Position numbers and translations under genes: made by a program. Under the pieces are notes generated by a model. The model saw only the letters and a list, made by a program, of their open reading frames with translations, was not told the origin of the DNA and ran no database searches. Source: Escherichia phage Ecwhy_1. Taken from it: a stretch of DNA of 64,000 nucleotides. This document shows, piece after piece, positions 1,508 through 35,678 of this stretch. The stretch is from the sequence record MH791411.1; one strand, written 5' to 3'. Numbering within the stretch: position 1 is the stretch's first letter; every line of letters starts with the position of its first letter.

Positions 1508-1553
1508 ATCATAAATAAATCAAATGAATGAACGAATTATATGGAGTCCAAAA

Positions 1554-19532: not shown

Positions 19533-19641
19533 TGTTAAGCCCTTTTAGTAGTGAACTTTCATTTATTTATTAATGGCAACGAAATGTATTTTGTACTGAT
19601 AAATATTGGTATATGACATTAACTCATACAAGGGAAATATT

Positions 19642-20769
19642 ATGACAATTTCATTCAACAATGGGTCAGGTGGTTCATGTAATAATTCTGGCATCAAAAG
19701 TTTAGTTATTAACGCTGCTGGACATTTAATTGTAACCTATTCCGACAATACAATCCAAGACCTAGGTCTAGTGGTTGGACAAAATGGTGCTAACGGTAGA
19801 AACTTTTATCCAAATGAGATAGGTTTTGAAGTTCCTAATGAACTCTTCCGTGTTGGTGAAGAACTAGGGTGGTGTTATCTTAGTCTTGCAAATGGCACTA
19901 GTACTTTATATTTCAAATCAAACGATGCACAAGAAGCAATTAGTACTTGGAACCGTGTAGAGTTTGGTAAAGGCGATACTGGTGAAACTGGTAAACCATT
20001 CCACATTGACAGTTCTGGTACGGTGTTTCCAACAACTGGTCTTTTCAATAATTACACATTCTATAATACTGAAGATGGTAAATTATATTTCTATCAAAGC
20101 GTAACTGCAACATGGAGTGATGGTATTCCTTTCCGTGGTGAACAAGGTCTACGTGGTCGTTTCCATATTGATAGTACTGGTAGTCAATTCCCAAGCATTG
20201 ATAATCTACCACAAGATTATTGCTTCTATAACACGACAGATGGTAATTTGTATTATGTCGATATCGTAACTACATCATCAACCCCAACTAAAGAGTGGAG
20301 TGCTGGTATCTTATTCCGTGGAAAAGACGGTGAAGAAGGTAAGCAAGGTGAACAAGGTATTCAGGGTGAACCAGGTAAAGATACAGTTGTTATCATCAAC
20401 ACTATTGATCATTCATGGACTAACGCATTGTTAGTTATTGGTACATGCCCTGCTGGATACCTAGTAACTAATATCGAAGTTGATATTAACCAAGCATATG
20501 ATGAACCAGTAAATGAAATGTTTGTACGTTTCGGTGGTGAAGCACAAGAAGATATTGGTGGTACTGTAATTGCACCTGTTGATTATTTCGATATCAACCG
20601 CAAAATGCGTTACATTGTTAACGAAACCAACCACGAAGTATCAAGTAAAGATGAAATCATTTCTTGTGTATTCAATGATTCCGTAAACAACAGTTCATTT
20701 GGTGAAATGAAGATCGTTTGTACTTTATCATGGCAAGCACCTATTCAGCCTATTCAAGATAACATTTAA
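19642..20769 (+). CDS. Collagen-like repeat tail fibre protein
   Basis: Gly-X-Y triplet run GKDGEEGKQGEQGIQGEPGKD plus shorter runs (FRGEQGLRGR). Two repeated beta modules (FHIDSSGTVFPTTGLF.../FHIDSTGSQFPSIDNL...). Likely start is the ATG at 19642 (aagggaaatattATG); the ORF-track start at 19606 is a TTG. Confidence 0.7.
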   Translation: MTISFNNGSGGSCNNSGIKSLVINAAGHLIVTYSDNTIQDLGLVVGQNGANGRNFYPNEIGFEVPNELFRVGEELGWCYLSLANGTSTLYFKSNDAQEAISTWNRVEFGKGDTGETGKPFHIDSSGTVFPTTGLFNNYTFYNTEDGKLYFYQSVTATWSDGIPFRGEQGLRGRFHIDSTGSQFPSIDNLPQDYCFYNTTDGNLYYVDIVTTSSTPTKEWSAGILFRGKDGEEGKQGEQGIQGEPGKDTVVIINTIDHSWTNALLVIGTCPAGYLVTNIEVDINQAYDEPVNEMFVRFGGEAQEDIGGTVIAPVDYFDINRKMRYIVNETNHEVSSKDEIISCVFNDSVNNSSFGEMKIVCTLSWQAPIQPIQDNI

Positions 20770-20783
20770 AAGAGGGTTGATAA

Positions 20784-22925
20784 ATGGCAGTTTTTTCCAA
20801 TTTAGAAGGGACCATGATGCCAACATTCAAGTTGGGTAAACGTGGTGCTTCTATTAATTTTGTAAACGATTCTGTCGCAATCAAAGACTTTTTAGGCGAA
20901 ACGTTCCTACCTGTTAAGGTGGGAACTCCTAATGACGATGATTCCGCAGTAAACGTTAGGTATCTTGAAGATAACCCAAATGCTTTATTTGGCGTACTTC
21001 CACCAACAAATGACATTGGTAAAAATAACAACACTTATTTTCAAGTTGATTCTGAGGGTATTGTTGATATCTTTGCAAAAACAAATGATGTTTGGGTAAA
21101 ATCATTATACATTAATAAAAATGTCCTTTCCAGTGTTAACGGTGCTGATTATATCGGACTTATTACTGGAGGAACACTTCAACAGGCACAGTTTTACATA
21201 ACTCCAGAAGAGTTTGGTGCAAAAGGTGATGGCATCACTGATGACACGGCGGCGGTTAACGCATGTGCAGTTTATGCTAAAGAACACAAAATCCAAATTC
21301 AAGCTGGTGGTAATTATCGTATCAGAACTGCTGTTTATTTGAATGATATTCAATGGTTTGGTGGTACAATCACTGGTAACGGTGGCACAATGGTATCGGT
21401 ACTGAATAGTACAATCCAACAAGCAACATTAACAGGATGTTATTTAAAATTCTTTGGTGGTAATGGTAAATTTTATTTTAATAAATTTATTAATATTACA
21501 AGTACTGCTGCATTTCTAATGCAAGGTATGACTGAATCAGGTACTATCGACTTCTGCTTTAATGAAATGACACAATGTAAGTACGGTGTTCTTCAGCAAG
21601 GCACTGGTGAGAAAATGACCGTTGGGCGTTATTCATACAACCACATCCATGATATATATGGTGATGCAATTGAATTGAACGTAGTCAACTCACATTACCC
21701 AGACGGATTTGTAATAGAAGGTAACTTGATTGAAAACGTAGATGGTACAAATGCACCAATTCCTCTTTCAAACTGGGGTATTGGTATCGGTGTTGCAGGT
21801 TCTGGTCCTTATGATGTGAATGCTGATGATTCACAATATGTAAAAAAATTCGTTATAAAAAATAACCGCTTGTACAATGTCCGTCAATGTATTCACGTTG
21901 AGTTGGGTAAAGACTTTAAAATTCTCAATAATGAAGTTTATCCATCAACGTTGGTATCAATTGGTACTGGTTTGACAACCGCTGGTGTAATTACTTATGG
22001 TTCTGTTGATTTTATTATTGATGGCCTATCTGGGCATCTATTAAATGATCCATCAGTAACTAACCGTATGGTTTCTATTAACTGGGGCGTAACATCTGGT
22101 AAATTTGCTGGTCCTCCACGAAACTTTAAATTATGTAATCTCCACATTCCTGAGTCGTCTATTATTGTGTATACTTCAGGCTCTGATAATTGGCTAAATA
22201 CTACTGAACTTTCTAATATTACATGTAGTAGAATTCAATGGCGTGGATTGCCGTCATCTTCCAAGTTTAATAATATCAGTACTAAAGAACTTGATGTTAT
22301 TGGACAACACCTTGCAACTGAAGGTGAAGGAGGGGGCTTATATACTCGCTCTAAATATACATATACCAACTGGACTAATTGTGTTGTTCAAGATGATTGT
22401 AACATATCAAAATATAGTTTCTCAAGAATGTATGTTGACCGTATTGACCAATCATCTAATAACTTTAAAGTAACCACTGCAATTGATGGAACGGGTCATC
22501 GTGGACCTGTAGTAATACCTGTAGTTGAACAGTATTACGTGCCTTATGATGTTTTTCCTGGTGGGAGATATTTCCCAGCAGGAACAATTATCCATAAACA
22601 ATCAGGTGGAAAATTTATTGTTACAGTAGGTGGTTCTTTCTTTGGTCGATATGACACAATTAGACAAACAGTTGCAGGACAAACTTATATCGAAGCATTG
22701 GGTGTATCATGGGGTGATAATCAATATGCTAAAGCTGCTGGAACCGAAATCCTAATCACAGGAGCAGGGGAAAATGGCGAAGATTTAAAAACATATATCA
22801 CTAGAGCAGTTTATGTTGTTAATAATGCGTATCGTATCGATATTGCCGATCCGATTGTTACTGCTACCGCAGCAGGGGCATTATTGAAAGCTGCTCAACC
22901 AATAACATATATCACCCTATCTTAA
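20784..22925 (+). CDS. Tailspike/depolymerase with pectate-lyase-like beta-helix domain
   Basis: ITPEEFGAKGDGITDDTAAVNAC is the hallmark N-terminal motif of pectate_lyase_3/P22-tailspike-like beta-helix proteins. Repeated NN.L.N blocks are typical of parallel beta-helix rungs. The N-terminal 11 aa MAVFSNLEGTM are shared with the next gene. Confidence 0.75.
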   Translation: MAVFSNLEGTMMPTFKLGKRGASINFVNDSVAIKDFLGETFLPVKVGTPNDDDSAVNVRYLEDNPNALFGVLPPTNDIGKNNNTYFQVDSEGIVDIFAKTNDVWVKSLYINKNVLSSVNGADYIGLITGGTLQQAQFYITPEEFGAKGDGITDDTAAVNACAVYAKEHKIQIQAGGNYRIRTAVYLNDIQWFGGTITGNGGTMVSVLNSTIQQATLTGCYLKFFGGNGKFYFNKFINITSTAAFLMQGMTESGTIDFCFNEMTQCKYGVLQQGTGEKMTVGRYSYNHIHDIYGDAIELNVVNSHYPDGFVIEGNLIENVDGTNAPIPLSNWGIGIGVAGSGPYDVNADDSQYVKKFVIKNNRLYNVRQCIHVELGKDFKILNNEVYPSTLVSIGTGLTTAGVITYGSVDFIIDGLSGHLLNDPSVTNRMVSINWGVTSGKFAGPPRNFKLCNLHIPESSIIVYTSGSDNWLNTTELSNITCSRIQWRGLPSSSKFNNISTKELDVIGQHLATEGEGGGLYTRSKYTYTNWTNCVVQDDCNISKYSFSRMYVDRIDQSSNNFKVTTAIDGTGHRGPVVIPVVEQYYVPYDVFPGGRYFPAGTIIHKQSGGKFIVTVGGSFFGRYDTIRQTVAGQTYIEALGVSWGDNQYAKAAGTEILITGAGENGEDLKTYITRAVYVVNNAYRIDIADPIVTATAAGALLKAAQPITYITLS

Positions 22926-22939
22926 AGGAGATTATAAAA

Positions 22940-23839
22940 ATGGCAGTTTTTTCTAATTTAGAAGGAACCATGAAGAAGACCTTCATACTTGGTAAAAATG
23001 GTGCACAAATTGCCACTAATGGTAATGTTGTTCAAATCCAGAACTACACGGGTACACAACTTCTTCCTGTTTCAGCAGGTGACCCAACCGCAAATACACA
23101 CTTGGTTACATTGGGTTATTTGAATACACATAGCGGTGGTGGTGGTGGTTCCGGTATTTTACGTGGAACTATTGCACCATCTGAATCAATCGGTGTAGAT
23201 GGTGACGCTTACTTCTTAGTTGACAGTACTAATATTATTCAGATCTATATTAAAGACCTTGGTGTTTGGAAGCCTCTCCAAAGCACAACTCCAGGTACTG
23301 ATAGTTCTTACGTTACTACTGAAATCGTTCCTGTATCGGCATTTACATTAGTTCCTGGAACAACAGATCAATATACTTATTCTTTGCCTGAATCAGTACA
23401 TGGTCGTGGTCCAGATATTATGGTTCAGCTACAGGGTGATCCTGGTAACATCCCACTTGACACTGTATTCCAAACTAACGTCACTGTGAGTGGTATTGGT
23501 GACATTACGATTGATGTTATTGGTCAAATCACTGAATACACAAGTGTCAAAGTCAACATCATAGGAGCAACAACAATGACAGTACCTTATAGTAAATTAA
23601 TTAATATAGCAGATTGGGTAGCATCTGGTGATGATTACACCATTACTGTTCCAGCGTCAGAACATAACCAAACACCTGACAATTTGTATATTTCTATATA
23701 TTCAAATAAAACACCAGGCAGTACAGCAGCATCACCATTTGAACTGGTAATAACCGAAACTCAAATTGATGCAAGTGGTAATGTTACATTCACTTCTGAC
23801 GAAGCGTTTAGTGGTAAAATAGTAATTTCCGGTAAATAA
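22940..23839 (+). CDS. Second receptor-binding protein (short fibre/spike) sharing an N-terminal anchor with the tailspike
   Basis: Begins MAVFSNLEGTMKKTFILGKNGA against MAVFSNLEGTMMPTFKLGKRGA in the upstream gene; about 30 nt are near-identical at DNA level. Poly-Gly linker GGGGGSG. Followed by a terminator. Confidence 0.65.
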   Translation: MAVFSNLEGTMKKTFILGKNGAQIATNGNVVQIQNYTGTQLLPVSAGDPTANTHLVTLGYLNTHSGGGGGSGILRGTIAPSESIGVDGDAYFLVDSTNIIQIYIKDLGVWKPLQSTTPGTDSSYVTTEIVPVSAFTLVPGTTDQYTYSLPESVHGRGPDIMVQLQGDPGNIPLDTVFQTNVTVSGIGDITIDVIGQITEYTSVKVNIIGATTMTVPYSKLINIADWVASGDDYTITVPASEHNQTPDNLYISIYSNKTPGSTAASPFELVITETQIDASGNVTFTSDEAFSGKIVISGK

Positions 23840-23847
23840 AAAAAATA

Positions 23848-23881
23848 GTCCAGACTATGATTCATCTAGTCTGGATTTTTT
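23848..23881 (+). terminator. Rho-independent terminator
   Basis: ccagacta-tgattcatc-tagtctgg hairpin followed by ATTTTTT. Confidence 0.65.
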
Positions 23882-23887
23882 ATATCA

Positions 23888-23913
23888 ATAACTAAATATA
23901 TGTATATTAACAA
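23888..23913 (+). promoter_or_regulatory. Conserved upstream element (putative late promoter) of fibre gene 1
   Basis: aactaaatatatgtatattaacaagg is almost identical to aaactaaatataagtatattaacaaaag upstream of fibre gene 2 at 28971. About 45-65 nt upstream of the respective ATGs, while the 5'UTRs otherwise differ. Confidence 0.5.
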
Positions 23914-23957
23914 GGTCAAATGTATTTTATGCTTTTTGCCTATTTGGAGGGAACTAA

Positions 23958-26900
23958 ATGTACTCGATTAAAACAGATCTCGATATAACTGGTGGTGCAA
24001 CGGTTGCTAAAGATCTTCTTGTGAAAGGCGATGCAGTATTCAATAAAAATCTAACAGTTAATGGAACTGTAACTTTTGCTGACGCTGTATTCACTGCAAT
24101 TGAAGCAGAAACTGTAGACATTTCATCTACACTAGATGTTGCTGGTAAAGCATCATTGAATGGTGGAATTGAAGTTCATGGTAATTCCGTAATTGGTAAT
24201 TTGCCTGTTGGTTCTGATACTGCAACGATTAATTCTAATGCACAATTCCAAAGCCCAGTATCAATGGCAGGTAATCTAACACAAACCGCTGGCACTGCTG
24301 TACTAAAAGATACCCAAGTGGCATCAATGGATGTTCTTGGGACTTCTTCATTTAAAGGTAATATTACTGCTGAAACTGGCACTACCGCAGCATTTGACAA
24401 AATAACTGCAACTGATGCAACATTCACAAACACTGCAACTACTGATATCACATCAACTGGAACTGCAAACTTTAAAGATGTGAATATTTCCGGTACACTA
24501 GGTGGAACATTTAGTCTATCTGATGTTAATGCAACAACTCTAACTGTTTCTGGTTTAACCAGTCTACAAGGTGGTGTTACATTAGGTTCCAACATTACTG
24601 GTGTGAATAGTAGTGCAAACTTCCGTGATATTAAAATTGGTTCCAATGCTGCAAACACTAACTACCGTTTGAGCTTTAACTATTCTGCTCCAAGTCTTCG
24701 TCCAACTGTAATTCTACAGAACGAAATCCAATCAGAATTGATGTCTCCAGCTACCCTAAGTGTATTGAAAACTGCATCTTTTGGTGATTCGTCACTATCC
24801 ACTTTTGGTATTACTGGTAATGGTCTAAACAAACTAGATTACCTAACAGTATCTGGTAACTCTGTTCAAGATCCAACAACTCCACTATTACAAGTAACTT
24901 CAGGTAAAACTAAAGTTCATGATTTCGAAGTAACAGGAACTGCAACTATTCCTAACATTGAAAGTACTGGTACTGCTAATTTTAATAACATCAACGTATC
25001 TGGTACACTCGGTGGTACTTTCAGTCTTGATGATATTGAAGCAAACACACTAACTGTATCCGGTTTAACTAGCCTTGTTGGTGGTGTAACTTTAGGTGCT
25101 GATATTTCCGGTGCTAATAGTACTGCTAATTTTAAAGCAGTAAGTTTAGGACAAAACGCCGCCGATGCTAACGTTAAGTATGGTTTTGCTTATTCTGCCC
25201 CTGGTGCTCGCCCAACTGTAATTCTACAAAATGAAATTCAGTCTGAGCTAGTATCTCCAGCAGTACTTAATGTACAAAAAACTGCAACCTTTGGTGATGC
25301 ATCTCTTGCAACCTATGGTATCACAGGTAACGGTCTAAACAAACTAGATTATCTATCTATTACTGGTAATGGTACACAAAGTCCAGCTACCCCACAACTA
25401 CAAGTTGCTGGTAAATCAGTACTAAATGATGTTGAATTCACTGGTACTGTAACTGGTCTAACTGTTGATGTGAGTGGACAAGATCTAACTCCTAAATCAG
25501 TAGATGCTGCTGAAGCAATCAAAGGTCAAACCCTTGAATCAGTTGGTCAAACCACAGTAGGAACTAACCTACAAGTTGGTGGAACTGCTAATGTTGTTGG
25601 TGCACTAACTGGTACTGCTGCTACCTTCACTGGTGATGTAAGTGCTGCTAAAGGTACTTTCAGTGGTGATGTTAGCGTTACTGGTCAAACTGTAACTGTA
25701 CGTGATTTAGTAGTAACTGGTACAACTACTGGTGTAACTGCCCAAGCTGATGTTGATGGTCTTGATATCGCCCCAAATAAAGTTGATGTTACAACAACAC
25801 TATCTGTTGCTGGGGACACTACTTTAGCTGGCCTAACTGCTAGTTCAGTAACCAGTACTGGTGATGTTACTGGTGCGTCTGTATCTGGTAATACAGTAAC
25901 TGCGGCTGGGGCACTATCTGGTGGTTCTCTTGCAGTAACTGGTGCTGGTTCTATGGCTTCACTAACTGTTCCAAGTATTACTGGTGACACTACTTTTGCT
26001 AATAACGTAACTATTACTGGAACACTAACTCCGAGTAGTATAGATTTAAGCACTACTGATGTAAGTGCTGCTTCTTTAACAACTACTGGTAACGTAACTG
26101 TTGGTGGTTCTCTTGCAGTAACTGGTGCTATTGATTTGTCTGCTGCTGATGTAGTAACAAAATCAGTTAGTGCAACTAACCCAAGTACATTTGGTGTAAT
26201 TAATGCATCTTCTGTTGCCGCAACTGGTGACGTTTCAGGTGGCACACTAACTACTACTGGTGCAGCGAAAGTAGGAACACTAACTAGTACTGGTGTAGTA
26301 TCTGGTTCGCGTTTGTCTTCTGGTACTGCAACAATCACAACTTCTGTAACAGTTCCAACTTTACAAGCTGAAGCTGCTGGTGCTGGTACACTAAATCTAG
26401 CAAGTAATGTTGTCGCGGCAAAAGATCTAACTGTCACTGGTGTATTCAAACCTGAAGGTGGTCTTGATCTAACAACTGTTGATATTACTGCAAACTCACT
26501 AACTACTACTGCTGATGTTAATGTTGGTGGAAACTTAGTAGTTGATGGTACTTTTGACCTAAGTGCTGCTGATGTGTCTGTGAAATCTCTTGCAAGTGCA
26601 GAGACAATTACAAGTGCTGGTGTTATTACCGTTACCGATTCAACCAATACTAGTTCGTTACCTAAAATTACTTCAACTGATGCAACACTCTTTACAGTAA
26701 ATGCAGGTACTATTAATGCAACTGGTAACAGTGTACTACAAAGTGTATCAGCTACTCAAGTAACTGCTAATAGTGCTGAATTTTCTGGTGGTGGCCTTGG
26801 TCTTCAAGTTGATAATGATGCAAACGTTGGTGGTGCATTATCTGTTGGTGGCATTGCAACTGTTGGTTCTTTAACAACAACTGCTGCTTCTCTTAATATT

Positions 26901-28892
26901 GCAAAAAATACTGCAATCACTGGTGATTTAGCTGTATCTGGCACACTAACTGCTGGTTCAATCGACCTAAGCAATACTGATGTAACCGTTAAATCTCTTG
27001 ATTCACTAGGTAACGCACACATTGCTGGTAACCTAACTGTAGATGGTGCATTCGACTTAAGTGCAACTAACCTTGTAGCTGCAAGTCTAGCAAGTACTGG
27101 TTCTACTACTGTTGGAACTGATCTAGTACTAACAACTGGTGTTGTGACTGGTAGCCCAGCTATCTCTGGTAATACAACAATCGGTGGAACTCTTGGTGTA
27201 ACTGGTGCTGTTAACCTAACTGATATTGTTAATATCGGTAAGAAAGTAACAGTGAGTACTGGTGGTATTCAGGTAGTTGATGGTGGTATCAATACTAACA
27301 CAATTAACGTTTCTGGTGCTTCTACTCTAGCAGGAACTTCCATTACTGGAACTTTAGGTGTAACTGGTGCTTCTACTCTAGCAGGTGTATCTGCGACATC
27401 ACTAACAGTTTCTGGTGACAGTACTGTTCAGAAACTAACTGTCCAAGGTGAATTGATCCCACAAGGTGGTCTTGACCTAAGCGGTGCAGACATTACTGCT
27501 AATAGTCTAACTACTGCGACAACTATCAATGCAACTGGCCTAAGTACTCTAAGTGGTGGTGTTAGTACTTCTACTGTGACTGCATCTGGTCTAGCAACTG
27601 TTGGAAGTTTAACTTCTACTGCAAACGCATCAGTTGGTGGTAATTTGGGTGTAACTGGAACTCTAGGTGTTACTGGTGCAACTACTGTATCTTCACTAAC
27701 AGCTACTGGTGCAGTGAAAACTGGTACAACCCTAACTGTTGGTACTCCAGTTGGTGAACAACCTGAAACTGTACAGATCATTCCAGATACTTATATTGCT
27801 GGTAAATTGCGTGTAATCGGTGGTATTAACGCTGAAATCGACGTAAGTGGTCAAACACTAGAACCATATGCAATTGAAGCTGCTGCAACACTATCTGCTG
27901 TTGGTAACATTACTTCTGGTGCAACCATCGTTTCTAAAGCTGCAACAATTGGTGATGTTGGTTCACAAAACAACAACCTAACTGTTAATGGTAACGTAGT
28001 AACTAATGGTGACTTCACCGTTACTGGTGTACTAAATGCACAATTGAACCAAGCAGATTCCGATGTAGCTGTTAAGTCTTTGACTGCAACTAATAACGTT
28101 GCGGCTGGTACTTCAATCACTGCTGGAACATCCATCACTGCATCAGGCTTACTAAAAGGTAATTCGTTAGAAGTCACCACTACTGGTTCATTTGGTGGTG
28201 CAGTAACTATGTCAAGTGGTGCAAACATCACTGGTACTGTTGGTATCACTGCTGGTGACCTAACAGTAGGTGGTAATATCTCTGCAACTGGTACTGCTGG
28301 ATTCGGTGCAACAACCGTTTCTACCATTACAACATCAGGTTTAGCTACCCTTGCAAGTGCATCTGTAACTGGTGCTCTAACTGTAGGTGGTACATTAACT
28401 GCAAATGGTAACACTGTGATTGGTGATGCTGCTGCTGATACTTTAACTGTAAATGCAACATCTACATTTAAAGAGAACGCAACATTTGATAAGAACCTAA
28501 CAGTGACTGGTTCTATTAACACCACCACTGCAAACTTCACTACAAACAACATGGTAACTAAGAAATATTCTGTTATCCCTGCTAGTGTTACTGCTTCTAC
28601 TGCTGCTGTAGGTGGCACTTGGACACCAGATGGTACTACTAACGTATATCGCTTAACTCTTGACCAAAGTGTTACAATGGATTCCATCGCGGGTCTAATT
28701 GGTAGTGGTCAAGCATGTTCAGTGTATATCTATGTAACTCCATCTGTTGCTGATACTACTTTCACCTTCGGTGGTGCATACTCTGTAGTTTCTGGTACAG
28801 TAAGTGCTGTAGTTGGTCAAACAAGTATTATCCAAGTAATCTATGATGGTTTCAGTACTGTGTTTGATACCTTCGTTGCACAACGTGTATAA
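23958..28892 (+). CDS. Giant repeat-containing tail fibre protein 1 (1,644 aa)
   Basis: RBS tttggagggaactaaATG. Thr/Gly/Ser/Val/Ala-dominated beta-strand repeats (…TGT.TV.G.LT…). N-terminal, C-terminal and several internal blocks are collinear with the downstream 1,899-aa paralog. All long antisense ORFs here are codon-bias artefacts. Confidence 0.85.
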   Translation: MYSIKTDLDITGGATVAKDLLVKGDAVFNKNLTVNGTVTFADAVFTAIEAETVDISSTLDVAGKASLNGGIEVHGNSVIGNLPVGSDTATINSNAQFQSPVSMAGNLTQTAGTAVLKDTQVASMDVLGTSSFKGNITAETGTTAAFDKITATDATFTNTATTDITSTGTANFKDVNISGTLGGTFSLSDVNATTLTVSGLTSLQGGVTLGSNITGVNSSANFRDIKIGSNAANTNYRLSFNYSAPSLRPTVILQNEIQSELMSPATLSVLKTASFGDSSLSTFGITGNGLNKLDYLTVSGNSVQDPTTPLLQVTSGKTKVHDFEVTGTATIPNIESTGTANFNNINVSGTLGGTFSLDDIEANTLTVSGLTSLVGGVTLGADISGANSTANFKAVSLGQNAADANVKYGFAYSAPGARPTVILQNEIQSELVSPAVLNVQKTATFGDASLATYGITGNGLNKLDYLSITGNGTQSPATPQLQVAGKSVLNDVEFTGTVTGLTVDVSGQDLTPKSVDAAEAIKGQTLESVGQTTVGTNLQVGGTANVVGALTGTAATFTGDVSAAKGTFSGDVSVTGQTVTVRDLVVTGTTTGVTAQADVDGLDIAPNKVDVTTTLSVAGDTTLAGLTASSVTSTGDVTGASVSGNTVTAAGALSGGSLAVTGAGSMASLTVPSITGDTTFANNVTITGTLTPSSIDLSTTDVSAASLTTTGNVTVGGSLAVTGAIDLSAADVVTKSVSATNPSTFGVINASSVAATGDVSGGTLTTTGAAKVGTLTSTGVVSGSRLSSGTATITTSVTVPTLQAEAAGAGTLNLASNVVAAKDLTVTGVFKPEGGLDLTTVDITANSLTTTADVNVGGNLVVDGTFDLSAADVSVKSLASAETITSAGVITVTDSTNTSSLPKITSTDATLFTVNAGTINATGNSVLQSVSATQVTANSAEFSGGGLGLQVDNDANVGGALSVGGIATVGSLTTTAASLNIAKNTAITGDLAVSGTLTAGSIDLSNTDVTVKSLDSLGNAHIAGNLTVDGAFDLSATNLVAASLASTGSTTVGTDLVLTTGVVTGSPAISGNTTIGGTLGVTGAVNLTDIVNIGKKVTVSTGGIQVVDGGINTNTINVSGASTLAGTSITGTLGVTGASTLAGVSATSLTVSGDSTVQKLTVQGELIPQGGLDLSGADITANSLTTATTINATGLSTLSGGVSTSTVTASGLATVGSLTSTANASVGGNLGVTGTLGVTGATTVSSLTATGAVKTGTTLTVGTPVGEQPETVQIIPDTYIAGKLRVIGGINAEIDVSGQTLEPYAIEAAATLSAVGNITSGATIVSKAATIGDVGSQNNNLTVNGNVVTNGDFTVTGVLNAQLNQADSDVAVKSLTATNNVAAGTSITAGTSITASGLLKGNSLEVTTTGSFGGAVTMSSGANITGTVGITAGDLTVGGNISATGTAGFGATTVSTITTSGLATLASASVTGALTVGGTLTANGNTVIGDAAADTLTVNATSTFKENATFDKNLTVTGSINTTTANFTTNNMVTKKYSVIPASVTASTAAVGGTWTPDGTTNVYRLTLDQSVTMDSIAGLIGSGQACSVYIYVTPSVADTTFTFGGAYSVVSGTVSAVVGQTSIIQVIYDGFSTVFDTFVAQRV

Positions 28893-28911
28893 CATTTTAA
28901 ATTAATAATTA

Positions 28912-28944
28912 AAGCCAACTTTTTTAGTTGGCTTTTTCTTTTGT
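28912..28944 (+). terminator. Rho-independent terminator
   Basis: aagccaact-ttttt-agttggctt hairpin followed by TTTTCTTTT after the fibre-1 stop. Confidence 0.75.
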
Positions 28945-28970
28945 ATTAGATAATAGTGTTTTTGTGAATT

Positions 28971-28998
28971 AAACTAAATATAAGTATATTAACAAAAG
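28971..28998 (+). promoter_or_regulatory. Conserved upstream element (putative late promoter) of fibre gene 2
   Basis: Near-identical copy of the 23888-23913 element. Confidence 0.5.
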
Positions 28999-29041
28999 AT
29001 GGGTTATGAATATATAGTTCATCGTTATAGGAGGGGACTCT

Positions 29042-32000
29042 ATGTACTCGATTAAAACGGATCTTGATGTATCTGGTAATTCCACGGTAGGTAAGGATCT
29101 TTTGGTCAAAGGTAATGCAGTATTCAGTAATGACCTAACGGTTAATGGGGAAGTGTCTTTTGCTAACGCAGTATTCACTGCAATTACCGCTGGTTCTGTG
29201 AATGTCACAGGTGCATTGGATGTTGCTGGTAAGGCAACCTTATCCGGTGGTGCTGATGTTTCAGGTGCTGCGACATTTGCAGGAAACATTACTGCTGCTG
29301 GCGGCACAACTGCAAAATTTGATAACTTAGAAGCTAATTCAGGATCATTTGATTCTGTTGAATCAACTGATATTACTTCAACTGGCACAGCAACTTTTAA
29401 AGATGTAAACATTTCTGGTACACTTGGTGGTACTTTTAATCTTTCTGATATTAATGCTACAACACTTAATGTGTCTGGTGCTTCAGCACTAACTGGTTCA
29501 GTCACATTGGGTGCAAATATCACTGGTCTTGCAAGTACTGCAAACTTCCGTGATATTCGTATCGGGCCTAATGAAGCAGGTCAAGCATATAGACTAAACT
29601 TTGGTTACACCGTTCCAGGACAACGACCAACCGTTCTTCTACAGAACGAAGTTCAATCCGAACTAATGTCACCAGCTAAGTTGAATGTTCTACAAACTGC
29701 AACATTTGGTGATTCTTCACTTTCAACTTACGGTATTACAGGTAATGGTTTAAACAAATTAGATTATGTAACTATTTCTGGTAACGCAATTCAATCACCA
29801 ACCACTCCTTTACTTGAAGTAACTAAAGGTAAAACTAAAGTTGTTGATTTAGAAGTAACTGGTGTAGCAACTATTCCTAATATCGAAAGTTCTGGTACTG
29901 CAAACTTTAACAACATCAACGTATCTGGTACTATTGGTGGTAGTTTTGATTTAGATGATATCCAAGCAACAACATTATCAGTATCCGGTGCTTCAGCACT
30001 AACTGGTGCAGTTACATTGGGTGCAAACATCACTGGTCTAGCAAGTACTGCAACATTCAAAGCAATCAATTTGGGTCAAAATACCGCTGATGCTAACGTT
30101 AAGCTAGGTTTTGCATATACTGCACCTAGTGCACGTCCAACAGTCTTGTTAGCAAACGAAGTTCAATCTGAACTAATGTCTCCTGCTAAGTTGAACGTTC
30201 TACAAACTGCAACCTTCGGTTCTGCTGCACTATCTACCTATGGTATTACTGGTAATGGTCTAAACAAATTAGATTATCTAACAATTACTGGTAACGCAAC
30301 ACAAAACCCTGCTACTCCACAACTTCAAGTTGGTGGTAAAGCAATTCTTAATGATGTTGAATTTACAGGTACTGTAACTGGCCTAACTGTTGATGTGAGT
30401 GGACAAGATCTAACTCCTAAATCAGTAGTTGCTGCTGAAGCAATCAAAGGTCAAACTCTTGAATCAGTTGGTCAAACAACTGTAGGTTCATCTCTACAAG
30501 TTGGCGGTACTGCAACTGTTACTGGTGCATTATCTGCTGCCTCTGGTACTTTCAGTGGTGATGTTAGTGGTTCTAAAGGTATCTTCAGTGGTAGCGTATC
30601 CGGTACAAGTGCAACCTTTACTGGGGATGTTAGCGGTGATAACGCAACCTTTAGTGGCGATTTATCTGCTGTAGCTGGCACTTTCAGTGGTGATGTAACC
30701 GTAACTGGTCAAACAATCACTGTTAAAGACTTGGTAGTAACTGGAACTTCAACTGGTGTAACTGCAATCGCTGACGTTGACGGTCTTGATATTGCTCCAA
30801 ACAAAGTTGATGTTACAACAACTCTATCTGTTGCTGGTGAATCAACTCTTGCTGGTATTACAGCAACTTCAATCAATAGTACTGGTGCAATTGCAGGTAC
30901 TGCAATTTCTGGCTCTACTATTACAGCAACTGGTGAAATTTCTGGTGCATCATCTGTAGTAACTGGTCTTTCTAAATCTGGTAGCGTTGAAACTGGTGCT
31001 CTAAAGGCATCTTCTGTTGAAACTGCAATCATTAGCAACACTGCTGGTGTGTCAATAACAAACAACACTTCCATTGCAGGTAATCTATCTGTGACTGGAA
31101 CTGTTACCCCTGGTGCAATTGACCTAAGCACTACTGATATTGATGCTAAGTCCCTAACTACAACTGAAGGTGCTAACATTGGTGGTAACCTAGTTGTTGC
31201 AGGTACAGTTGATCTAAGTGCTGCTGACGTTGCTGTTAAATCTCTAACCAGTACTGGTGCAGTTATTAGTTCTGAAGGTACTGTAAGTAGTGTTCTACCT
31301 AAACTTTCCAGTACTGAAGCTAATATTACCACAGTAACTGCAACCACTGCAAATGCTACCACACTAAATGTAACTGGTACATCAACTCTAGCTGGTGTTA
31401 ACGCTTCTGGTGCTATTACTTCTGCAACTAACATTACCGCTACTGGTGTATTAAAAGGTGCATCTGTTGAAACTGCGTCAATCAGCAATGCTGATGGTGT
31501 AGCAATTAACAATAACACTACAATCACTGGTAATTTGGACGTATCTGGGACATTGACCCCTGGTGCAATTGACCTAAGCACTACTGATATTAGTTCTAAG
31601 TCTCTAACCACAACTGAAGGTGCTACAATTGGTGGCGATCTTGTGGTAGCAGGTACTGTTGACCTAAGTGCTGCTGATGTGTCTGTGAAATCTCTTGCAA
31701 GTGCAGAGACAATTACAAGTGCTGGTGTTATTACAGTTTCGGATACAGTGAATTCTAGCACTCTACCAAAACTAATTACTACTGATGCAACTATTGGTGC
31801 TGTCCATGCAGCTACTATTGAAACAACTGGTTCAAGTACACTAAAACAAGTATCTGCTACTGAAGTAACAGCTACAAGTATTGTACTAAATTCAGTTGGT
31901 GAAGGTTTACGTGTTGACAATAATGCAAACATTAATGGTATATTAAGTGTTAATAATATTACTTCTACCAATGATACTATTGCAATTGCGAAAAGTGCTG

Positions 32001-34741
32001 CTATTACTGGTGATCTGACCGTATCTGGAACTGTTACCCCTGGTGCAATTGACCTAAGTACTACCGATATTAGTTCTAAATCCCTAAGTACTACTGAAGG
32101 TGCTACAATTGGTGGTGACCTAGTTGTTAATGGTTCAATTGATTTAAGTTCTTCCAATGTTTCAGCAATTACCCTTGCTAGTTCTGGTAATACTACCGTT
32201 GGTGGTAACCTAGTACTAACAACTGGTGTTGTAACTGGCAGCCCATCTGTATCTGGCAACCTTTCAGTTGCAGGTACTGCGGCAGTAACTGGTGCAACTA
32301 CCCTAACTGATATCGTAAATATCGGTAAGAAAGTAACTGTAAGCACTGGTGGTATTCAAGTAGTTGCAGGTGGTATTAATACCGACGCTATATTAGTATC
32401 CGGTGATACAACTTTAAACAACACTACTGTAAACACTACCTTAAATGTAACTGGTCAAAGTACAGTAGCTGCACTAAGTGCTGCATCTTTGAATGTATCT
32501 GGTGATAGTACTGTTCAAAAACTAACAGTTGAAGGTGAATTGGTTCCACAAGGTGGTATCGACCTAACTGGTGCAGATATTTCTGCTAATAGTCTTGCAA
32601 CTGCTTCAACAATCACTGCAACTGGACTAAGCACACTAAGTGGTGGTGTAAGTACTACTAATGTTACTGCATCTGGTACAGTGAATGCTGGTAGTTTGGA
32701 TGTTACTAACAACGCAACCGTTGGTGGTAATTTGGGTGTAACTGGTTCATTAACTTCTGGTCCATTGAGTGTAACAGGTATTGCGAATATTACTGGTGTA
32801 ACAACTGTTGGTTCATTGGTTTCCGGTGCAGTATCTGGTAGTACTGGTACATTTAGTTCAACATTAGGTGTAACTGGTGCAGCTACATTTGACAATGACG
32901 TAACTGTTGAAGGTGTATTCACCCCAGCAGGTGGTTTAGACCTAACAACTTCTGATATTACGGCTAAGAGTTTGTCAGTATCTGAAACTATTCACTCTGA
33001 TGGTGCAGCTTCCTTTGGTGGTAACACAACAGTAGGTGGTACATTGGGTGTAACTGGTGCAGTAACTGCTCCATCGGCAACCCTAAGTGGTACTGGTACT
33101 GCACTAGCAGTAACTAATAATGCAACTATTGGTGGTACATTAGGTGTAACTGGTCAAGCATCACTTGGTTCTATAGTAACTTCTGGCGTTTCTGCAACAA
33201 GTGGCTCTTTCAGTACTACTCTTGGCGTTACTGGTGCTGCGACATTTGGTAACGATGTAACTGTAGTTGGAACACTAACTCCTGGTAGCTTAGATCTAAC
33301 TGGTGCAGATATCTCTGCTAAAACACTAACTCTATCTGAAACATTAAATGCAACAGGTAATACTACCCTTGGTGGAACATTAGGTGTAACTGGTTTAGCA
33401 ACAATTGGTGGAACACTAACGTCTGGTGCAGTAACTGCTCCATCTGCAACCTTGAATGGTTCAGGTACTGGTCTAGCAGTAACTAACAACGCAACCGTTG
33501 GTGGAACATTAGGTGTAGTTGGTCAAACAACACTAGGTTCTGTTAAAACTGGTGCAACTCTAACAGTTGGTACACCATTAGGTGAGCAGCCTGAAACTGT
33601 ACAGATTATGCCAGACACTTATATTGCTGGTAAACTACGTGTTGAAGGTGGTATTAACGCAGATATCGATGTTGGTGGACAAACACTAGAACCGTTTGCA
33701 GTAATAGCATCTGATTCTTTATCTTCTGCTGGTAATATTACTGCTGGTGCAGCAATTATTTCAAGTTCTGCAACAATTGGTGAAGTCGGTTCACAAAACA
33801 ACAACCTAATCGTTAATGGTAACGTTGTAAACAACGGTAACTTCACTGTTACTGGTGTACTAAATGCACAATTGAACCAAGCAGATTCCGATGTAGCTGT
33901 TAAGTCTTTGACTGCAACTAACAACGTATCTGCTGGAACCACATTAAGTGCAGGTACTGCAATTACTGCTGGTACTTCCATCACTGCAACTGGATTACTT
34001 AAAGGTAATACTTTAGAAGTTACTACTACTGGTTCATTTGGTGGTTTAGTAACTATGTCAAGTGGTGCAAATATCACTGGTGCAATGACCACTGCGGGTA
34101 ACATAACAGTGGGTGGCAATATCACTGCAACTGGTACTGCTGGATTCGCTGCAACAACCGTTTCTACAATTACAACAACAGGTTTGGCTACAATTGCAAG
34201 TGCATCCATTACTGGTAACGCAACAGTAGGTGGAACACTAACTGCGAATGGTAACGTAACATTAGGTGACGCAGCGGCAGACGTTCTAACCGTTAATGCA
34301 ACTTCATCATTTAAAGAAAATGCTGTGTTTGATAAGGCAGTAACAGTAACTGGTGCACTAACCACTACTAATGCTAACTTAACTACTACAACAGTAACTA
34401 CCAAAAAGTATGATGTAATCCCAACTCAAGTTACATCATCAGTAATTGCTCCAACCGGAACATGGACTCCAGATGGTACAAGTAACGTATACTTCATCAC
34501 TCTAGACCAAGATACCACGTTGGCTCCAATTACTGGCCTAATTGGTGGTGGTAAAGCTGCATCAGTATACATCTATGTTAAACAAGATACAACTGGTAAC
34601 AGAAACTTTACAACTGATGGTACTTATGCTGTTGTTGATGGTGAACTAAACAAAACTGCTGGTAGTGTGACCATTTACCAAGTAATTTATGATGGTGTAA
34701 GTCCAGTTACTGATTTGTTCATTGCACAACGTACTGCTTAA
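29042..34741 (+). CDS. Giant repeat-containing tail fibre protein 2 (1,899 aa), paralog of fibre 1
   Basis: RBS ataggaggggactctATG. Same N-terminus (MYSIKTDLD...) and C-terminus (…IYQVIYDG.S.V.D.F.AQR) as fibre 1. Carries three internal repeats of about 470 bp (31090, 31545, 32025) encoding SGTLTPGAIDLSTTDI.SKSLTTTEGATIGGDLVVAGTVDLSAADV.VKSL. Confidence 0.85.
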   Translation: MYSIKTDLDVSGNSTVGKDLLVKGNAVFSNDLTVNGEVSFANAVFTAITAGSVNVTGALDVAGKATLSGGADVSGAATFAGNITAAGGTTAKFDNLEANSGSFDSVESTDITSTGTATFKDVNISGTLGGTFNLSDINATTLNVSGASALTGSVTLGANITGLASTANFRDIRIGPNEAGQAYRLNFGYTVPGQRPTVLLQNEVQSELMSPAKLNVLQTATFGDSSLSTYGITGNGLNKLDYVTISGNAIQSPTTPLLEVTKGKTKVVDLEVTGVATIPNIESSGTANFNNINVSGTIGGSFDLDDIQATTLSVSGASALTGAVTLGANITGLASTATFKAINLGQNTADANVKLGFAYTAPSARPTVLLANEVQSELMSPAKLNVLQTATFGSAALSTYGITGNGLNKLDYLTITGNATQNPATPQLQVGGKAILNDVEFTGTVTGLTVDVSGQDLTPKSVVAAEAIKGQTLESVGQTTVGSSLQVGGTATVTGALSAASGTFSGDVSGSKGIFSGSVSGTSATFTGDVSGDNATFSGDLSAVAGTFSGDVTVTGQTITVKDLVVTGTSTGVTAIADVDGLDIAPNKVDVTTTLSVAGESTLAGITATSINSTGAIAGTAISGSTITATGEISGASSVVTGLSKSGSVETGALKASSVETAIISNTAGVSITNNTSIAGNLSVTGTVTPGAIDLSTTDIDAKSLTTTEGANIGGNLVVAGTVDLSAADVAVKSLTSTGAVISSEGTVSSVLPKLSSTEANITTVTATTANATTLNVTGTSTLAGVNASGAITSATNITATGVLKGASVETASISNADGVAINNNTTITGNLDVSGTLTPGAIDLSTTDISSKSLTTTEGATIGGDLVVAGTVDLSAADVSVKSLASAETITSAGVITVSDTVNSSTLPKLITTDATIGAVHAATIETTGSSTLKQVSATEVTATSIVLNSVGEGLRVDNNANINGILSVNNITSTNDTIAIAKSAAITGDLTVSGTVTPGAIDLSTTDISSKSLSTTEGATIGGDLVVNGSIDLSSSNVSAITLASSGNTTVGGNLVLTTGVVTGSPSVSGNLSVAGTAAVTGATTLTDIVNIGKKVTVSTGGIQVVAGGINTDAILVSGDTTLNNTTVNTTLNVTGQSTVAALSAASLNVSGDSTVQKLTVEGELVPQGGIDLTGADISANSLATASTITATGLSTLSGGVSTTNVTASGTVNAGSLDVTNNATVGGNLGVTGSLTSGPLSVTGIANITGVTTVGSLVSGAVSGSTGTFSSTLGVTGAATFDNDVTVEGVFTPAGGLDLTTSDITAKSLSVSETIHSDGAASFGGNTTVGGTLGVTGAVTAPSATLSGTGTALAVTNNATIGGTLGVTGQASLGSIVTSGVSATSGSFSTTLGVTGAATFGNDVTVVGTLTPGSLDLTGADISAKTLTLSETLNATGNTTLGGTLGVTGLATIGGTLTSGAVTAPSATLNGSGTGLAVTNNATVGGTLGVVGQTTLGSVKTGATLTVGTPLGEQPETVQIMPDTYIAGKLRVEGGINADIDVGGQTLEPFAVIASDSLSSAGNITAGAAIISSSATIGEVGSQNNNLIVNGNVVNNGNFTVTGVLNAQLNQADSDVAVKSLTATNNVSAGTTLSAGTAITAGTSITATGLLKGNTLEVTTTGSFGGLVTMSSGANITGAMTTAGNITVGGNITATGTAGFAATTVSTITTTGLATIASASITGNATVGGTLTANGNVTLGDAAADVLTVNATSSFKENAVFDKAVTVTGALTTTNANLTTTTVTTKKYDVIPTQVTSSVIAPTGTWTPDGTSNVYFITLDQDTTLAPITGLIGGGKAASVYIYVKQDTTGNRNFTTDGTYAVVDGELNKTAGSVTIYQVIYDGVSPVTDLFIAQRTA

Positions 34742-34807
34742 TAATTATAATAAAAAAAACGGTGTCATCAATTATGGTGACACCATCTTAACAAGTGAGG
34801 TAGATAT

Positions 34808-35587
34808 ATGTTTACATATGTAAAAGGTAGTTCTAAAGAAAATTATGAATTGGGTAACATCATCTCCAACCCAGTTGGTGTTAAGGGTTTAAAAGAACGC
34901 CCTGGGGCAACTCCAGATGATGAACAAACATATCGTTATTTGTACAGTGATATCCGTGCACTTTATGGTATTTCAAGTAAAGATGGTTCTGAAATTGAAC
35001 CTAATAACGCTGTTCGCAAAGAAGAGGGTTTCTGGTGGTTGGAATATAAGAATGTTGGTAATGTGAACGCAATTAATGAGAATTTGGAATATATTAAACT
35101 ACAAGATAGTAATCAACCAGTCATCACATTCTTAGAAGAAGCAGAAGGTGAATATAAAGAGTTAACAGTACTGAAAACTTATAATTATGTTGATATGGAC
35201 ATTGCAGCAGTTAAATCTGATCTGAAAGCACGCACAGTATCATCTCGTAGTGATCGTATTAATGCTGGTTATATGTTTAACGGTCATCGTTATAGTACTG
35301 ATCTAGCTGGTCGTCAAATGCTTCTTAATTATTATACACAAGTAACTTCCGGTTCTGATAGCGTTTCGATTTTCCTTGATGACGCAATTGTAAAACTATC
35401 TGCTGCTGAAATGACTCAACTATACACTGAAGCATTTGCTATGGTTGAATCCCTATTTGCAGAGTGTAATAAGCAATGTGCTGACATTGATGCAGTTCCT
35501 GATGCTGATGAAGATGCAATTTATAAAGCACAACAGGCGGCTGTATGGGTATATGAAGGTATTGATATTCCTGAGCGTATTCGTTAA
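34808..35587 (+). CDS. Hypothetical protein, putative fibre assembly/chaperone or fibre-associated protein
   Basis: 259-aa ORF immediately after the fibre genes; RBS gtgaggtagatatATG. No catalytic motif recognised. The functional call rests on position only. Confidence 0.5.
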   Translation: MFTYVKGSSKENYELGNIISNPVGVKGLKERPGATPDDEQTYRYLYSDIRALYGISSKDGSEIEPNNAVRKEEGFWWLEYKNVGNVNAINENLEYIKLQDSNQPVITFLEEAEGEYKELTVLKTYNYVDMDIAAVKSDLKARTVSSRSDRINAGYMFNGHRYSTDLAGRQMLLNYYTQVTSGSDSVSIFLDDAIVKLSAAEMTQLYTEAFAMVESLFAECNKQCADIDAVPDADEDAIYKAQQAAVWVYEGIDIPERIR

Positions 35588-35600
35588 TTTATATTTTTTT

Positions 35601-35630
35601 AAAGGTCAACTATGGTTGGCCTTTTCTTTT
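35601..35630 (+). terminator. Rho-independent terminator
   Basis: aaaggucaac-uaug-guuggccuuu (10-bp stem with one G-U pair) followed by TCTTTT. Confidence 0.65.
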
Positions 35631-35678
35631 ATCTAAAATAAATACTTAATATATAATCTATTCTGAGGAAATATTTAA

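Follow-up and report, generated by a model that had tools for sequence, protein, structure and literature searches.

The modular construction of phage receptor-binding proteins is a long-established principle. To our knowledge, the adsorption apparatus of the RaK2-like jumbo phages is essentially uncharacterized beyond the long fibers of RaK2 itself. In K1-5, K1E, and SP6, the appendage proteins share a short peptide of 7 or 11 residues, while same-genome appendages with a common N-terminus and differing parts behind it are described for KP32/KP34 (the RBP2 docking peptide), CBA120 (TSP1-4), and RaK2/K64-1 (gp526-534) (PMC6872550, PMC10253068). Latka et al. 2019 also discuss truncated receptor-binding proteins as retained docking sites (PMC6872550). 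Among the enzymes carried by such proteins, gp150 of phage phi92 (PDB 6E0V/6E0W) is experimentally verified to degrade colanic acid and is reported to cleave its beta-1,4 Glc-Fuc linkage (as cited in PMC13450770). Here, we describe two adjacent genes of Escherichia phage Ecwhy_1 whose products share an N-terminal domain, predicted to fold, of ~105 residues rather than a short peptide, and which differ from RaK2 gp098 and the gp526-534 fiber set studied so far (Noreika et al. 2023, PMC10253068).

The window, i.e., the whole stretch of 64,000 nucleotides that was analyzed (record MH791411.1), is 99.9% identical to phage vB_Ec-M-J, and the phage is an Asteriusvirus jumbo coliphage of the RaK2-like type. 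The two genes, ORF713 and ORF299 (Table 1), lie 14 nt apart on the same strand, each preceded by a Shine-Dalgarno sequence of good quality: GAGGG (20772-20776) for ORF713 and AAGGAG (22925-22930) for ORF299. Both products open with MAVFSNLEGTM, and 31 of the 33 leading nucleotides are identical, as an earlier note on this DNA had observed; the motif FGAKGDGITDDTAAVNAC that it read in ORF713 is likewise present. Downstream, ORF1644 and ORF1899 both match phrog_4549 (tail fiber), ORF259 matches phrog_17968, and ORF654 matches phrog_14293. The proposal of six receptor-binding candidates describes the cluster at 19.6-37.6 kb fairly, although PHROG categories are its entire basis.

Table 1. Features of the ORF713/ORF299 locus, with positions counted in the window.
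Feature	Position	Strand	Evidence
Upstream "tail protein", 375 aa from ATG 19642, short collagen-like stretch	19642..20769	+	phrog_13565, E 7.9e-213
ORF713, chimeric tailspike, predicted colanidase, 713 aa	20784..22925	+	phrog_6117 "colanic acid degradation", E 3.5e-252
MAVFSNLEGTM codons (11) of ORF713	20784..20816	+	peptide scan
N-domain of ORF713, residues 1-104	20784..21095	+	BLASTP vs ORF299 N-domain; N-module HMM, E 8.2e-28
Predicted colanidase module of ORF713, residues 96-713	21069..22922	+	phi92 gp150 alignment; PDB 6E0V
ORF299, conserved virion structural protein, 299 aa	22940..23839	+	phrog_10468, E 2.6e-92
MAVFSNLEGTM codons (11) of ORF299	22940..22972	+	peptide scan; conservation in family
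N-domain of ORF299, residues 1-110	22940..23269	+	four parts: peptide, beta-beta-beta-alpha, Gly-rich linker, beta-hairpin repeat
C-terminal part of ORF299, residues 125-299	23312..23836	+	AF2 model: two beta-sandwich (Ig-like) domains
Downstream fiber cluster: ORF1644, ORF1899, ORF259, ORF654	23958..37643	+	PHROG matches

The likeness of the two proteins extends well past the opening peptide. Residues 1-104 of ORF713 align with residues 1-110 of ORF299 at 41% identity (BLASTP, E 2e-19), which at the level of sequence is far beyond chance. Because the alignment spans this whole length, the shared unit is a domain of ~105-110 residues and no 11-residue tag, and the earlier statement that the proteins diverge completely behind the peptide has to be given up: True divergence sets in at ~residue 105 of ORF713, where the match to phi92 gp150 begins. 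Both genes begin MAVFSN[LF]EGT[ML] in each Asteriusvirus examined (PBECO4, ph0011, A4, and SD-6_S16), all Asteriusvirus colanidases examined begin MAVFSN[LF]EGTM, and the RaK2 version of the peptide reads MAIFSNLEGTM. Among 46 members of the ORF299 family, invariant positions account for 8 of the first 10 residues and 12 of the first 21, versus 47 of 299 overall. In a neighbor-joining (NJ) tree of the 66-residue module, built without bootstrap, the colanidase N-domains do not join the ORF299 clade but cluster with further modules of the spike type; the paralogs, 55-60% divergent, would therefore be old, and they may have ceased to share a binding site. The same tree speaks against a recent duplication or gene conversion of the N-domain, as a suggestive result from 66 residues without bootstrap.

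Behind its N-domain, ORF713 closely resembles a described enzyme. Residues 189-801 of phi92 gp150 match ORF713 residues 96-712 with 56% identity over 617 residues, strongly so from ~residue 107, and PDB 6E0V, a solved structure that covers the module, matches the catalytic part of ORF713 at E 4.3e-233. Residues 1-95 of ORF713 gave no alignment with residues 1-188 of gp150, so that the N-terminal parts are unrelated. Judged by homology, ORF713 is hence the N-domain fused at ~residue 105 to a gp150-like colanidase, and presumably, given the 56% identity, it is the same enzyme as gp150. Because the ORF713 N-domain bears no relation to the ~190 N-terminal residues of gp150, this would be the same enzyme on another anchor in another virion. 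In more than 250 phage records, among them phi92-like, rV5-like, and PVP-SE1-like myophages as well as podophages, the colanidase module follows a different N-terminus. As in the modular receptor-binding proteins of the K1-5/SP6, KP32, CBA120, and RaK2 type, the enzymatic module is horizontally exchangeable.

ORF299 is of a different nature. We found 66 full-length homologs across RaK2-like phages, with 44-99% identity at 100% coverage, and a protein of this type (285-300 aa) occurs in Asteriusvirus, Mimasvirus, Eneladusvirus, and uncultured relatives. It is a full-length member of phrog_10468, which includes CBB_227, GAP32_221, and RaK2 gp061, and nothing of substance separates it from CBB_227 and GAP32_221. 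In every RaK2-like phage examined, the upstream neighbor of the ORF299-type gene is the phrog_13565 tail protein gene (RaK2, CBB, GAP32, PBECO4, A4, and IMG/VR loci), and the ortholog always lies between this gene and a long fiber gene. The literature searched yielded no published function or location for the phrog_10468 family. Mass spectrometry of CBB virions detected CBB_227, the ORF299 ortholog (PMC5259590). Proteins of the ORF713 and ORF299 types are absent from the virion mass-spectrometry table of phAPEC6, which is uninformative because the deposited record carries neither CDS. On comparative grounds, RaK2-like phages conserve ORF299 as a core component, and it is no swappable spike, which sets it apart from the variable proteins of the modular systems. 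The idea of a conserved anchor with exchangeable cargo consequently applies to ORF713, a chimera whose N-terminal module also heads unrelated C-termini, but not to ORF299, which is conserved over its whole length.

RaK2 and K64-1 retain only the 115-aa N-domain of ORF299 as an intact ORF; in both, a deletion runs from the end of the N-domain through to the ORF654 ortholog, removing the C-terminal part of ORF299 and the fiber block. This truncated remnant parallels the truncated receptor-binding proteins of Latka et al. 2019 (PMC6872550).

The genome holds exactly two copies of the N-domain. We looked for a third ORF with this N-terminus by six-frame peptide scanning, by tblastn, and with an HMM of the N-module over ~364 kb (the window together with the remainder of the vB_Ec-M-J genome, i.e., essentially a whole genome) and recovered none. 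A weak tblastn match (E 0.16) where ORF259 begins, at 34808, lacked HMM support, and we rejected it as a third copy. The likeness to multi-spike phages drawn in the earlier note, which had suggested a search for further MAVFSNLEGTM ORFs in the genome, was therefore not borne out, and its branched adsorption apparatus finds no counterpart in the related phage phAPEC6, where electron microscopy displays six short baseplate fibers and hair-like fibers and no RaK2-type branched tuft (PMC7247149). Compared with the modular systems described above, the locus has two copies only, and no T4 gp10-like platform was found.

Outside this genome, the N-module is widespread. A word-indexed protein search with the 115-aa N-domain returned only three truncated proteins, and the wider set came from an exhaustive profile search of 1.84 billion proteins, where proteins of 99-1366 aa began with the module (residues 1-65), which lay always at the extreme N-terminus and in no case internally. 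The metagenomic cargoes behind it comprise S74-chaperone spikes, right-handed beta-helix spikes, and BNR-propeller fibers, and the N-terminal peptide is conserved even in distant metagenomic proteins. With a degenerate DNA pattern, we retrieved 19 loci from IMG/VR, of which all except one carried a canonical ORF299-type gene; the exception (L026) is an N-module spike, and another locus (L021, phage 121Q) carries an ORF299-type gene together with a colanidase copy. In one IMG/VR contig, the module is fused to a phrog_19988 tail spike. Hence, we encountered both the same anchor with different cargoes (S74, beta-helix, BNR, and phrog_19988) and the same colanidase with different anchors. Two metagenomic fiber clusters (L038 and L039) contained no multi-copy array of the module but one N-module gene each. 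We found no Pfam family for the first ~65 residues and, in the literature, no description of the MAVFSNLEGTM module.

Structure prediction of the N-terminus, as the earlier note had suggested, gave a confident result. In AlphaFold monomer models, the N-domain forms a small beta-beta-beta-alpha unit, while its invariant first ~10 residues score lower. Residues 1-65 end in a common fiber neck motif, P....D.(V/A)T..Y(L/V)(D/N), which in ORF299 takes the form P..(D)..VT..YL and after which ORF299 has a Gly-rich linker and, at residues 72-112, a predicted beta-hairpin fiber repeat. A comparison lent no support to the notion that the repeat (68-114) is common to the upstream ORF387. The predicted fold is weakly similar to trimerization or anchor units (the phicrAss001 gp21 and P68 head-fiber anchors and the collagen XV/XVIII trimerization domain), with weak scores and no sequence similarity, so the resemblance would be one of fold class only and provides no evidence of homology. 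Residues 125-299 of ORF299 were modeled with a pLDDT of about 90 (AF2), and the Foldseek matches, all of them weak, were to Ig domains in tandem (filamin, E 0.012).

We propose that the paralogous N-domains of ~105-110 residues dock two appendage proteins to the same kind of socket while their cargoes differ, a reading to which we assign a probability of about 0.62. It is supported by the paralogy, the chimeric junction, the occurrence of other anchors and cargoes, the conservation of the peptide, the retention of the N-domain in RaK2 and K64-1, the presence of CBB_227 in virions, and the leading position of the N-module gene in metagenomic fiber clusters. Both proteins would most likely be trimeric, with the N-domain nucleating trimerization and fitting each of them to one shared type of socket, located on the tail or the baseplate complex. 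In such an arrangement, the near-invariant peptide MA[VI]FSN[LF]xGT[MF] would become ordered upon binding, followed by the beta-beta-beta-alpha unit to ~residue 65, a Gly-rich hinge, and one beta-hairpin fiber repeat. The beta-helix colanidase of ORF713, acquired as a module, would strip colanic-acid exopolysaccharide so that the phage reaches the cell surface, and ORF299, with its two predicted Ig-like beta-sandwich domains, may be a proximal adaptor of the giant fibers encoded just downstream.

It is conceivable, yet in our view improbable, that the N-domain, derived from a shared fiber ancestor, serves only to nucleate trimerization or folding and that other parts or proteins attach to the virion, in which case the shared peptide would be no docking signal. 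Residues 45-65 and 65-111 are indeed generic fiber motifs that also occur inside long fibers and HylP hyaluronidases. Against this, the module occupies the extreme N-terminus in every case, conservation peaks in the lower-confidence first ~10 residues and exceeds that of the folded core, and the stand-alone N-domain ORF of RaK2 has nothing to trimerize. We note that a pure trimerization role would account for most of the same data.

Still less probable is an arrangement in which ORF713 and ORF299 form one complex, with ORF299 as an adaptor for the colanidase and/or a giant fiber, or with both in mixed trimers, such that their similarity reflects mutual recognition. The close spacing of the two genes on one strand, the invariable placement of the ORF299 ortholog between the phrog_13565 gene and a long fiber gene, and the first position of N-module genes in multi-gene metagenomic fiber clusters would fit such a complex, but an identity of 41% is low for mixed trimers and no T4 gp10-like branching domain was detected in ORF299. 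Moreover, Asteriusvirus excepted, the genera with ORF299 orthologs lack a second N-domain protein; since they have ORF299 alone, this protein does not need the colanidase. Finally, the notion that the identical start is a mere nucleotide artifact (a signal in the mRNA or for translation initiation, the case that the earlier note itself had named against its reading, or else a gene conversion of recent date) could appeal to the near-identity of the leading nucleotides (33 of 33 for ORF299 versus phage CBB) and to codon use at identical residues (the same codon at 39 of 50 in the first 11 codons versus 111 of 250 beyond, in pooled, non-independent comparisons), but as the sole explanation it is refuted by the protein homology over 105-110 residues, the peptide kept in distant metagenomic proteins, and the fold predicted with high confidence, and the ancient divergence of the paralogs in the NJ tree makes recent gene conversion unlikely. 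An extra nucleotide constraint may nevertheless act on the 5′ end alongside the protein-level homology.

The docking of appendages through the N-domain also admits a bolder version, which we advance tentatively and consider doubtful: MA[VI]FSNLEGTM plus the ~65-residue module might be a universal plug for one type of socket across RaK2-like and related uncultured jumbo phages. The particle would then display any trimeric cargo fused behind ~residue 105, and stand-alone N-domains such as RaK2 gp061 would cap the socket, so that the site stays filled once the distal fibers are lost.

As a case of modular receptor-binding proteins, ORF713 and ORF299 are clean-cut but ordinary. Because the principle itself is old, the gain is limited to a new family of anchors along with a clearly defined example, with no new concept. 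For Asteriusvirus, the capture of a phi92-type enzyme module would be the route to cutting colanic acid. RaK2-like jumbo phages have been explored for therapy directed at E. coli, Klebsiella, Salmonella, and plant pathogens. If the N-domain docks to the virion, ~residue 105 would be the point at which new binding domains or depolymerases could be fused in Asteriusvirus and other RaK2-like jumbo phages, and if the module were a universal plug, this previously undescribed anchor family would offer a simple handle for retargeting jumbo phages.

A gap of 14 nt separates ORF713 and ORF299, both on the + strand. As the earlier note had pointed out, they share an N-terminal peptide and near-identical DNA: both start with MAVFSNLEGTM, with 31 of 33 nt identical at the 5′ ends. 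That note had the two proteins diverge completely after these 11 residues, which is incorrect: in BLASTP, residues 1–104 of ORF713 align with residues 1–110 of ORF299 (41% identity, E = 2e-19), and structure prediction for the N-terminus (AlphaFold2, with a more diverse alignment) returned a folded unit over residues 1–120, with a mean pLDDT of 84.9. Judged from these alignments and the model, the unit common to both proteins is a domain, not a tag or a translation signal; we refer to it as the N-domain, and to its first ~65 residues as the N-module. A six-frame peptide scan and tblastn found no further copy of MAVFSNLEGTM in the window, and an N-module HMM combined with approximate peptide matching found no third N-module ORF in the ~364 kb formed by the window and the rest of phage vB_Ec-M-J (next best HMM match, E = 2.8). 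The additional ORFs with this start for which the earlier note proposed a search were thus not encountered, only ORF713 and ORF299 matching.

Genes of the tail cluster, in + strand order
Feature	Position	Strand	Place in cluster	Family or annotation	Upstream signal
Tail protein		+	first	phrog_13565	
ORF713	20784-22925	+	second	phrog_6117, "colanic acid degradation"	Shine-Dalgarno site
ORF299	22940-23839	+	third	phrog_10468, virion structural protein	Shine-Dalgarno site
Two giant fibres		+	after ORF299	phrog_4549	
ORF259		+	after giant fibres	phrog_17968	
ORF654		+	after ORF259	phrog_14293	

At the nucleotide level, the ORF299 gene opens with 33 nt (22940-22972) that are identical (33/33) in phage CBB (L008:6001-6033), with ~60% identity between the two over the next ~310 nt. 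Identical residues used the same codon in 39 of 50 cases within the first 11 codons versus 111 of 250 later, counts that are pooled over non-independent comparisons. This hints that the 5′ end may be constrained as nucleotide sequence as well as through the protein.

Region 19600-24000 shares 99.9% identity with Escherichia phage vB_Ec-M-J, 98–99.6% with eight further phages (fEgEco12, WPEC3/5, BF17 and CMSTMSU among them) and ~79% with PBECO4, 121Q and phAPEC6; we therefore assign the window to Asteriusvirus, RaK2-like jumbo myophages of ~350–385 kb. For the upstream tail protein, a mechanical ORF call from TTG 19606 gives 387 aa, with 19606-19641 as an extension; the PHROG profile and annotated orthologs begin at ATG 19642 (375 aa), the more probable true start. 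Upstream of the cluster, one 3333-aa ORF occupies 1524-11525; in vB_Ec-M-J it carries the annotation of a virion structural protein (EcMJ_317). Elsewhere, the vB_Ec-M-J record contains an unannotated 1.3-kb gap after nrdG (98.8–100.1 kb; L036:285-1597) with a minus-strand ORF of ~400 aa bearing Gly-rich motifs, and at 333–351 kb (L034:4207-21768) 14 paralogous genes of ~370–395 aa in tandem, for which the annotation reads "regulator of chromosome condensation" (RCC1-like); a virion structural protein gene comes after the array.

Behind its N-domain, ORF713 carries a predicted colanic-acid-degrading enzyme module (colanidase). Residues 96–712 align with residues 189–801 of phi92 gp150 at 56% identity and match the gp150 crystal structure (PDB 6E0V, E = 4.3e-233), while the N-terminal parts (~100 residues in ORF713, ~190 in gp150) are unrelated in the alignment. 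According to Xu et al. 2025, as cited in PMC13450770, gp150 degrades colanic acid by hydrolysing the beta-1,4 Glc-Fuc linkage. The description of ORF713 as a pectate-lyase-type tailspike needs a different footing, since the Pfam match is sub-threshold (17 bits, cutoff 27), but the fold is safe through the gp150 match. The colanidase module occurs in 286 phage records, including Justusliebigvirus, rV5-like and PVP-SE1-like myophages and ~42-kb podophages. The similarity to ORF299 stops where the colanidase module is joined on (~residue 105), so that ORF713 combines a clade-specific N-domain with an imported colanidase. In vB_Ec-M-J (OQ718158, L002) the colanidase is annotated as two CDS (EcMJ_308/307), as is the 1644-aa fibre (23958-28892 in the window; EcMJ_305/304), whereas both are single intact ORFs in the window; either the two sequences differ by frameshifts or one of them contains sequencing errors.

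ORF299, in contrast to the exchangeable cassette that the earlier note took it for, is a conserved core protein. Searching 5.8 billion proteins brought up 66 homologues (44–99% identity), including GAP32, fHe-Yen9-04, pEa_SNUABM_50 and EJP2, with 100% query coverage in all but one and lengths of 284–309 aa, the 309 aa being a single outlier. Mass spectrometry of purified CBB virions identified the ortholog there, CBB_227, from 5 peptides (32% coverage; PMC5259590). Residues 125–299 are predicted to form two beta-sandwich domains (pLDDT ~90; AlphaFold2, 46 sequences), for which the sole Foldseek similarity was a weak one to tandem Ig domains. Against 50,697 phage records, tblastn matches to the N-domain were confined to RaK2-like jumbo phages, at two places in each Asteriusvirus and one in every other genus; Mimasvirus (CBB, GAP32) has the order tail protein, 287-aa protein, long fibre, without a colanidase. 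In RaK2 and K64-1, the ORF299 ortholog is a 115-aa ORF (gp061) that stops right past the N-domain, and the next gene is the ORF654 ortholog; a deletion has therefore eliminated the C-terminal part along with the giant fibres, leaving the N-domain ORF intact. Some 165 nt of non-coding sequence follow gp061 in both (RaK2, L003:9001-9512; K64-1, L001). In phAPEC6, gp254 and gp255 are the colanidase and the ORF299 ortholog; the deposited record (L037, MK817115, 185866-189071) has no CDS for them between gp253 and gp256, so that nothing can be read into the fact that the published mass-spectrometry table of virion proteins does not list them.

A profile of the N-domain, searched against 1.84 billion representative proteins, gave 196 matches at E < 1e-3, which split the domain into sub-modules 1–65, 42–77 and 65–111. 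Residues 1–65 were matched only at the extreme N-terminus, in proteins of 99–1366 aa whose remainders are mutually unrelated: a pectate-lyase-like domain with an S74 chaperone (P0084), a right-handed beta-helix (P0090), BNR-propeller fibres of 1200–1366 aa (P0101, P0103, P0131, P0146, P0171, P0179) and other architectures (P0203, P0110, P0128). Residues 42–77 form a common neck motif, P....D.ATK.YVD, also present in HylP hyaluronidases and the T5 L-shaped fibre, and residues 65–111 are a widespread fibre repeat, with many copies inside long fibres. No Pfam family covers the N-module; 10 of 14 modules matched phrog_4302, a family of unknown function. In the ORF299 family, 12 of 21 residues are invariant at the N-terminus versus 47 of 299 overall. 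The model comprises residues 1–10 at a pLDDT of only 59, three short strands and a helix (14–64), a low-confidence Gly-rich hinge (67–69) and a beta-hairpin unit (73–112). Tailspike N-termini are among the structural comparisons named for it; Foldseek returned nothing significant (best, phicrAss001 head fibre, E = 0.58), which leaves the fold assignment, to a small trimerising anchor unit, tentative.

On the reading best supported by the evidence, the N-domain is a trimerising, virion-proximal attachment module of an appendage-protein family that occurs in jumbo phages of the RaK2-like group and in uncultured relatives. We infer docking, a docking partner and a role for the invariant peptide because the N-module is strictly N-terminal, because its extremely conserved segment is modelled at lower confidence in the monomer, and because RaK2 keeps the N-domain alone; the main rival is that the N-domain serves purely for trimerisation. 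A virion-proximal role also fits two metagenomic clusters of five large fibre genes each (L038 and L039; Logan contigs SRR31175869_973 and SRR25394035_5533), where the first gene, a BNR-propeller fibre of ~1220 aa, is the sole module carrier, the second (587 aa) having only the neck motif in common.

In a neighbor-joining tree of the first 66 residues, which has no bootstrap and is suggestive only, Asteriusvirus colanidase N-modules cluster with spike-associated modules (the L026 spike, P0084, P0090), outside the clade of all ORF299-type modules (Asterius-, Mimas- and Alcyoneusvirus). ORF299-type modules are 59–70% identical across genera and 35–50% identical to colanidase modules. Both the tree and the identities argue against recent in-genome duplication or gene conversion and are suggestive of two old paralogous lineages, of which the spike lineage would change cargo. 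The L026 spike (L026:1172-3226, IMG/VR UViG_3300007747_000141; 684 aa), from an uncultured relative, joins the N-module to a phrog_19988 tail spike. Its gene sits immediately downstream of nrdD/nrdG and ahead of phrog_3573 proteins, at a position that corresponds by synteny to EcMJ_231-236 of vB_Ec-M-J; Asteriusvirus lacks such a gene there. The position resembles a second site for the insertion of N-module spikes within the group.

The proposal of a conserved adaptor with exchangeable cargo thus holds for the ORF713 chimera and the varied cargoes behind residues 1–65, but not for ORF299. Conserved N-terminal anchors or short peptides joined to exchangeable receptor-binding or depolymerase domains are well established, as in K1-5/SP6, KP32/KP34, CBA120, G7C and the RaK2/K64-1 long fibres (PMC6872550, PMC10253068), the latter being different genes from those of ORF713 and ORF299. 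A literature search found no published description of this N-terminal module. As to the branched, multi-receptor adsorption apparatus that the earlier note suggested, the tools used turned up no T4-gp10-like domain, and electron microscopy of phAPEC6 showed six short fibres at the baseplate as well as hair-like ones on tail and capsid (PMC7247149). The principle is already known and would not surprise a phage specialist; new here is a previously uncatalogued anchor family, as a well-delimited example. In Asteriusvirus, it would serve two proteins: the conserved ORF299, with Ig-like cargo and possibly acting as an adaptor for the downstream fibres, and a colanidase spike that would have captured a phi92-type enzyme.
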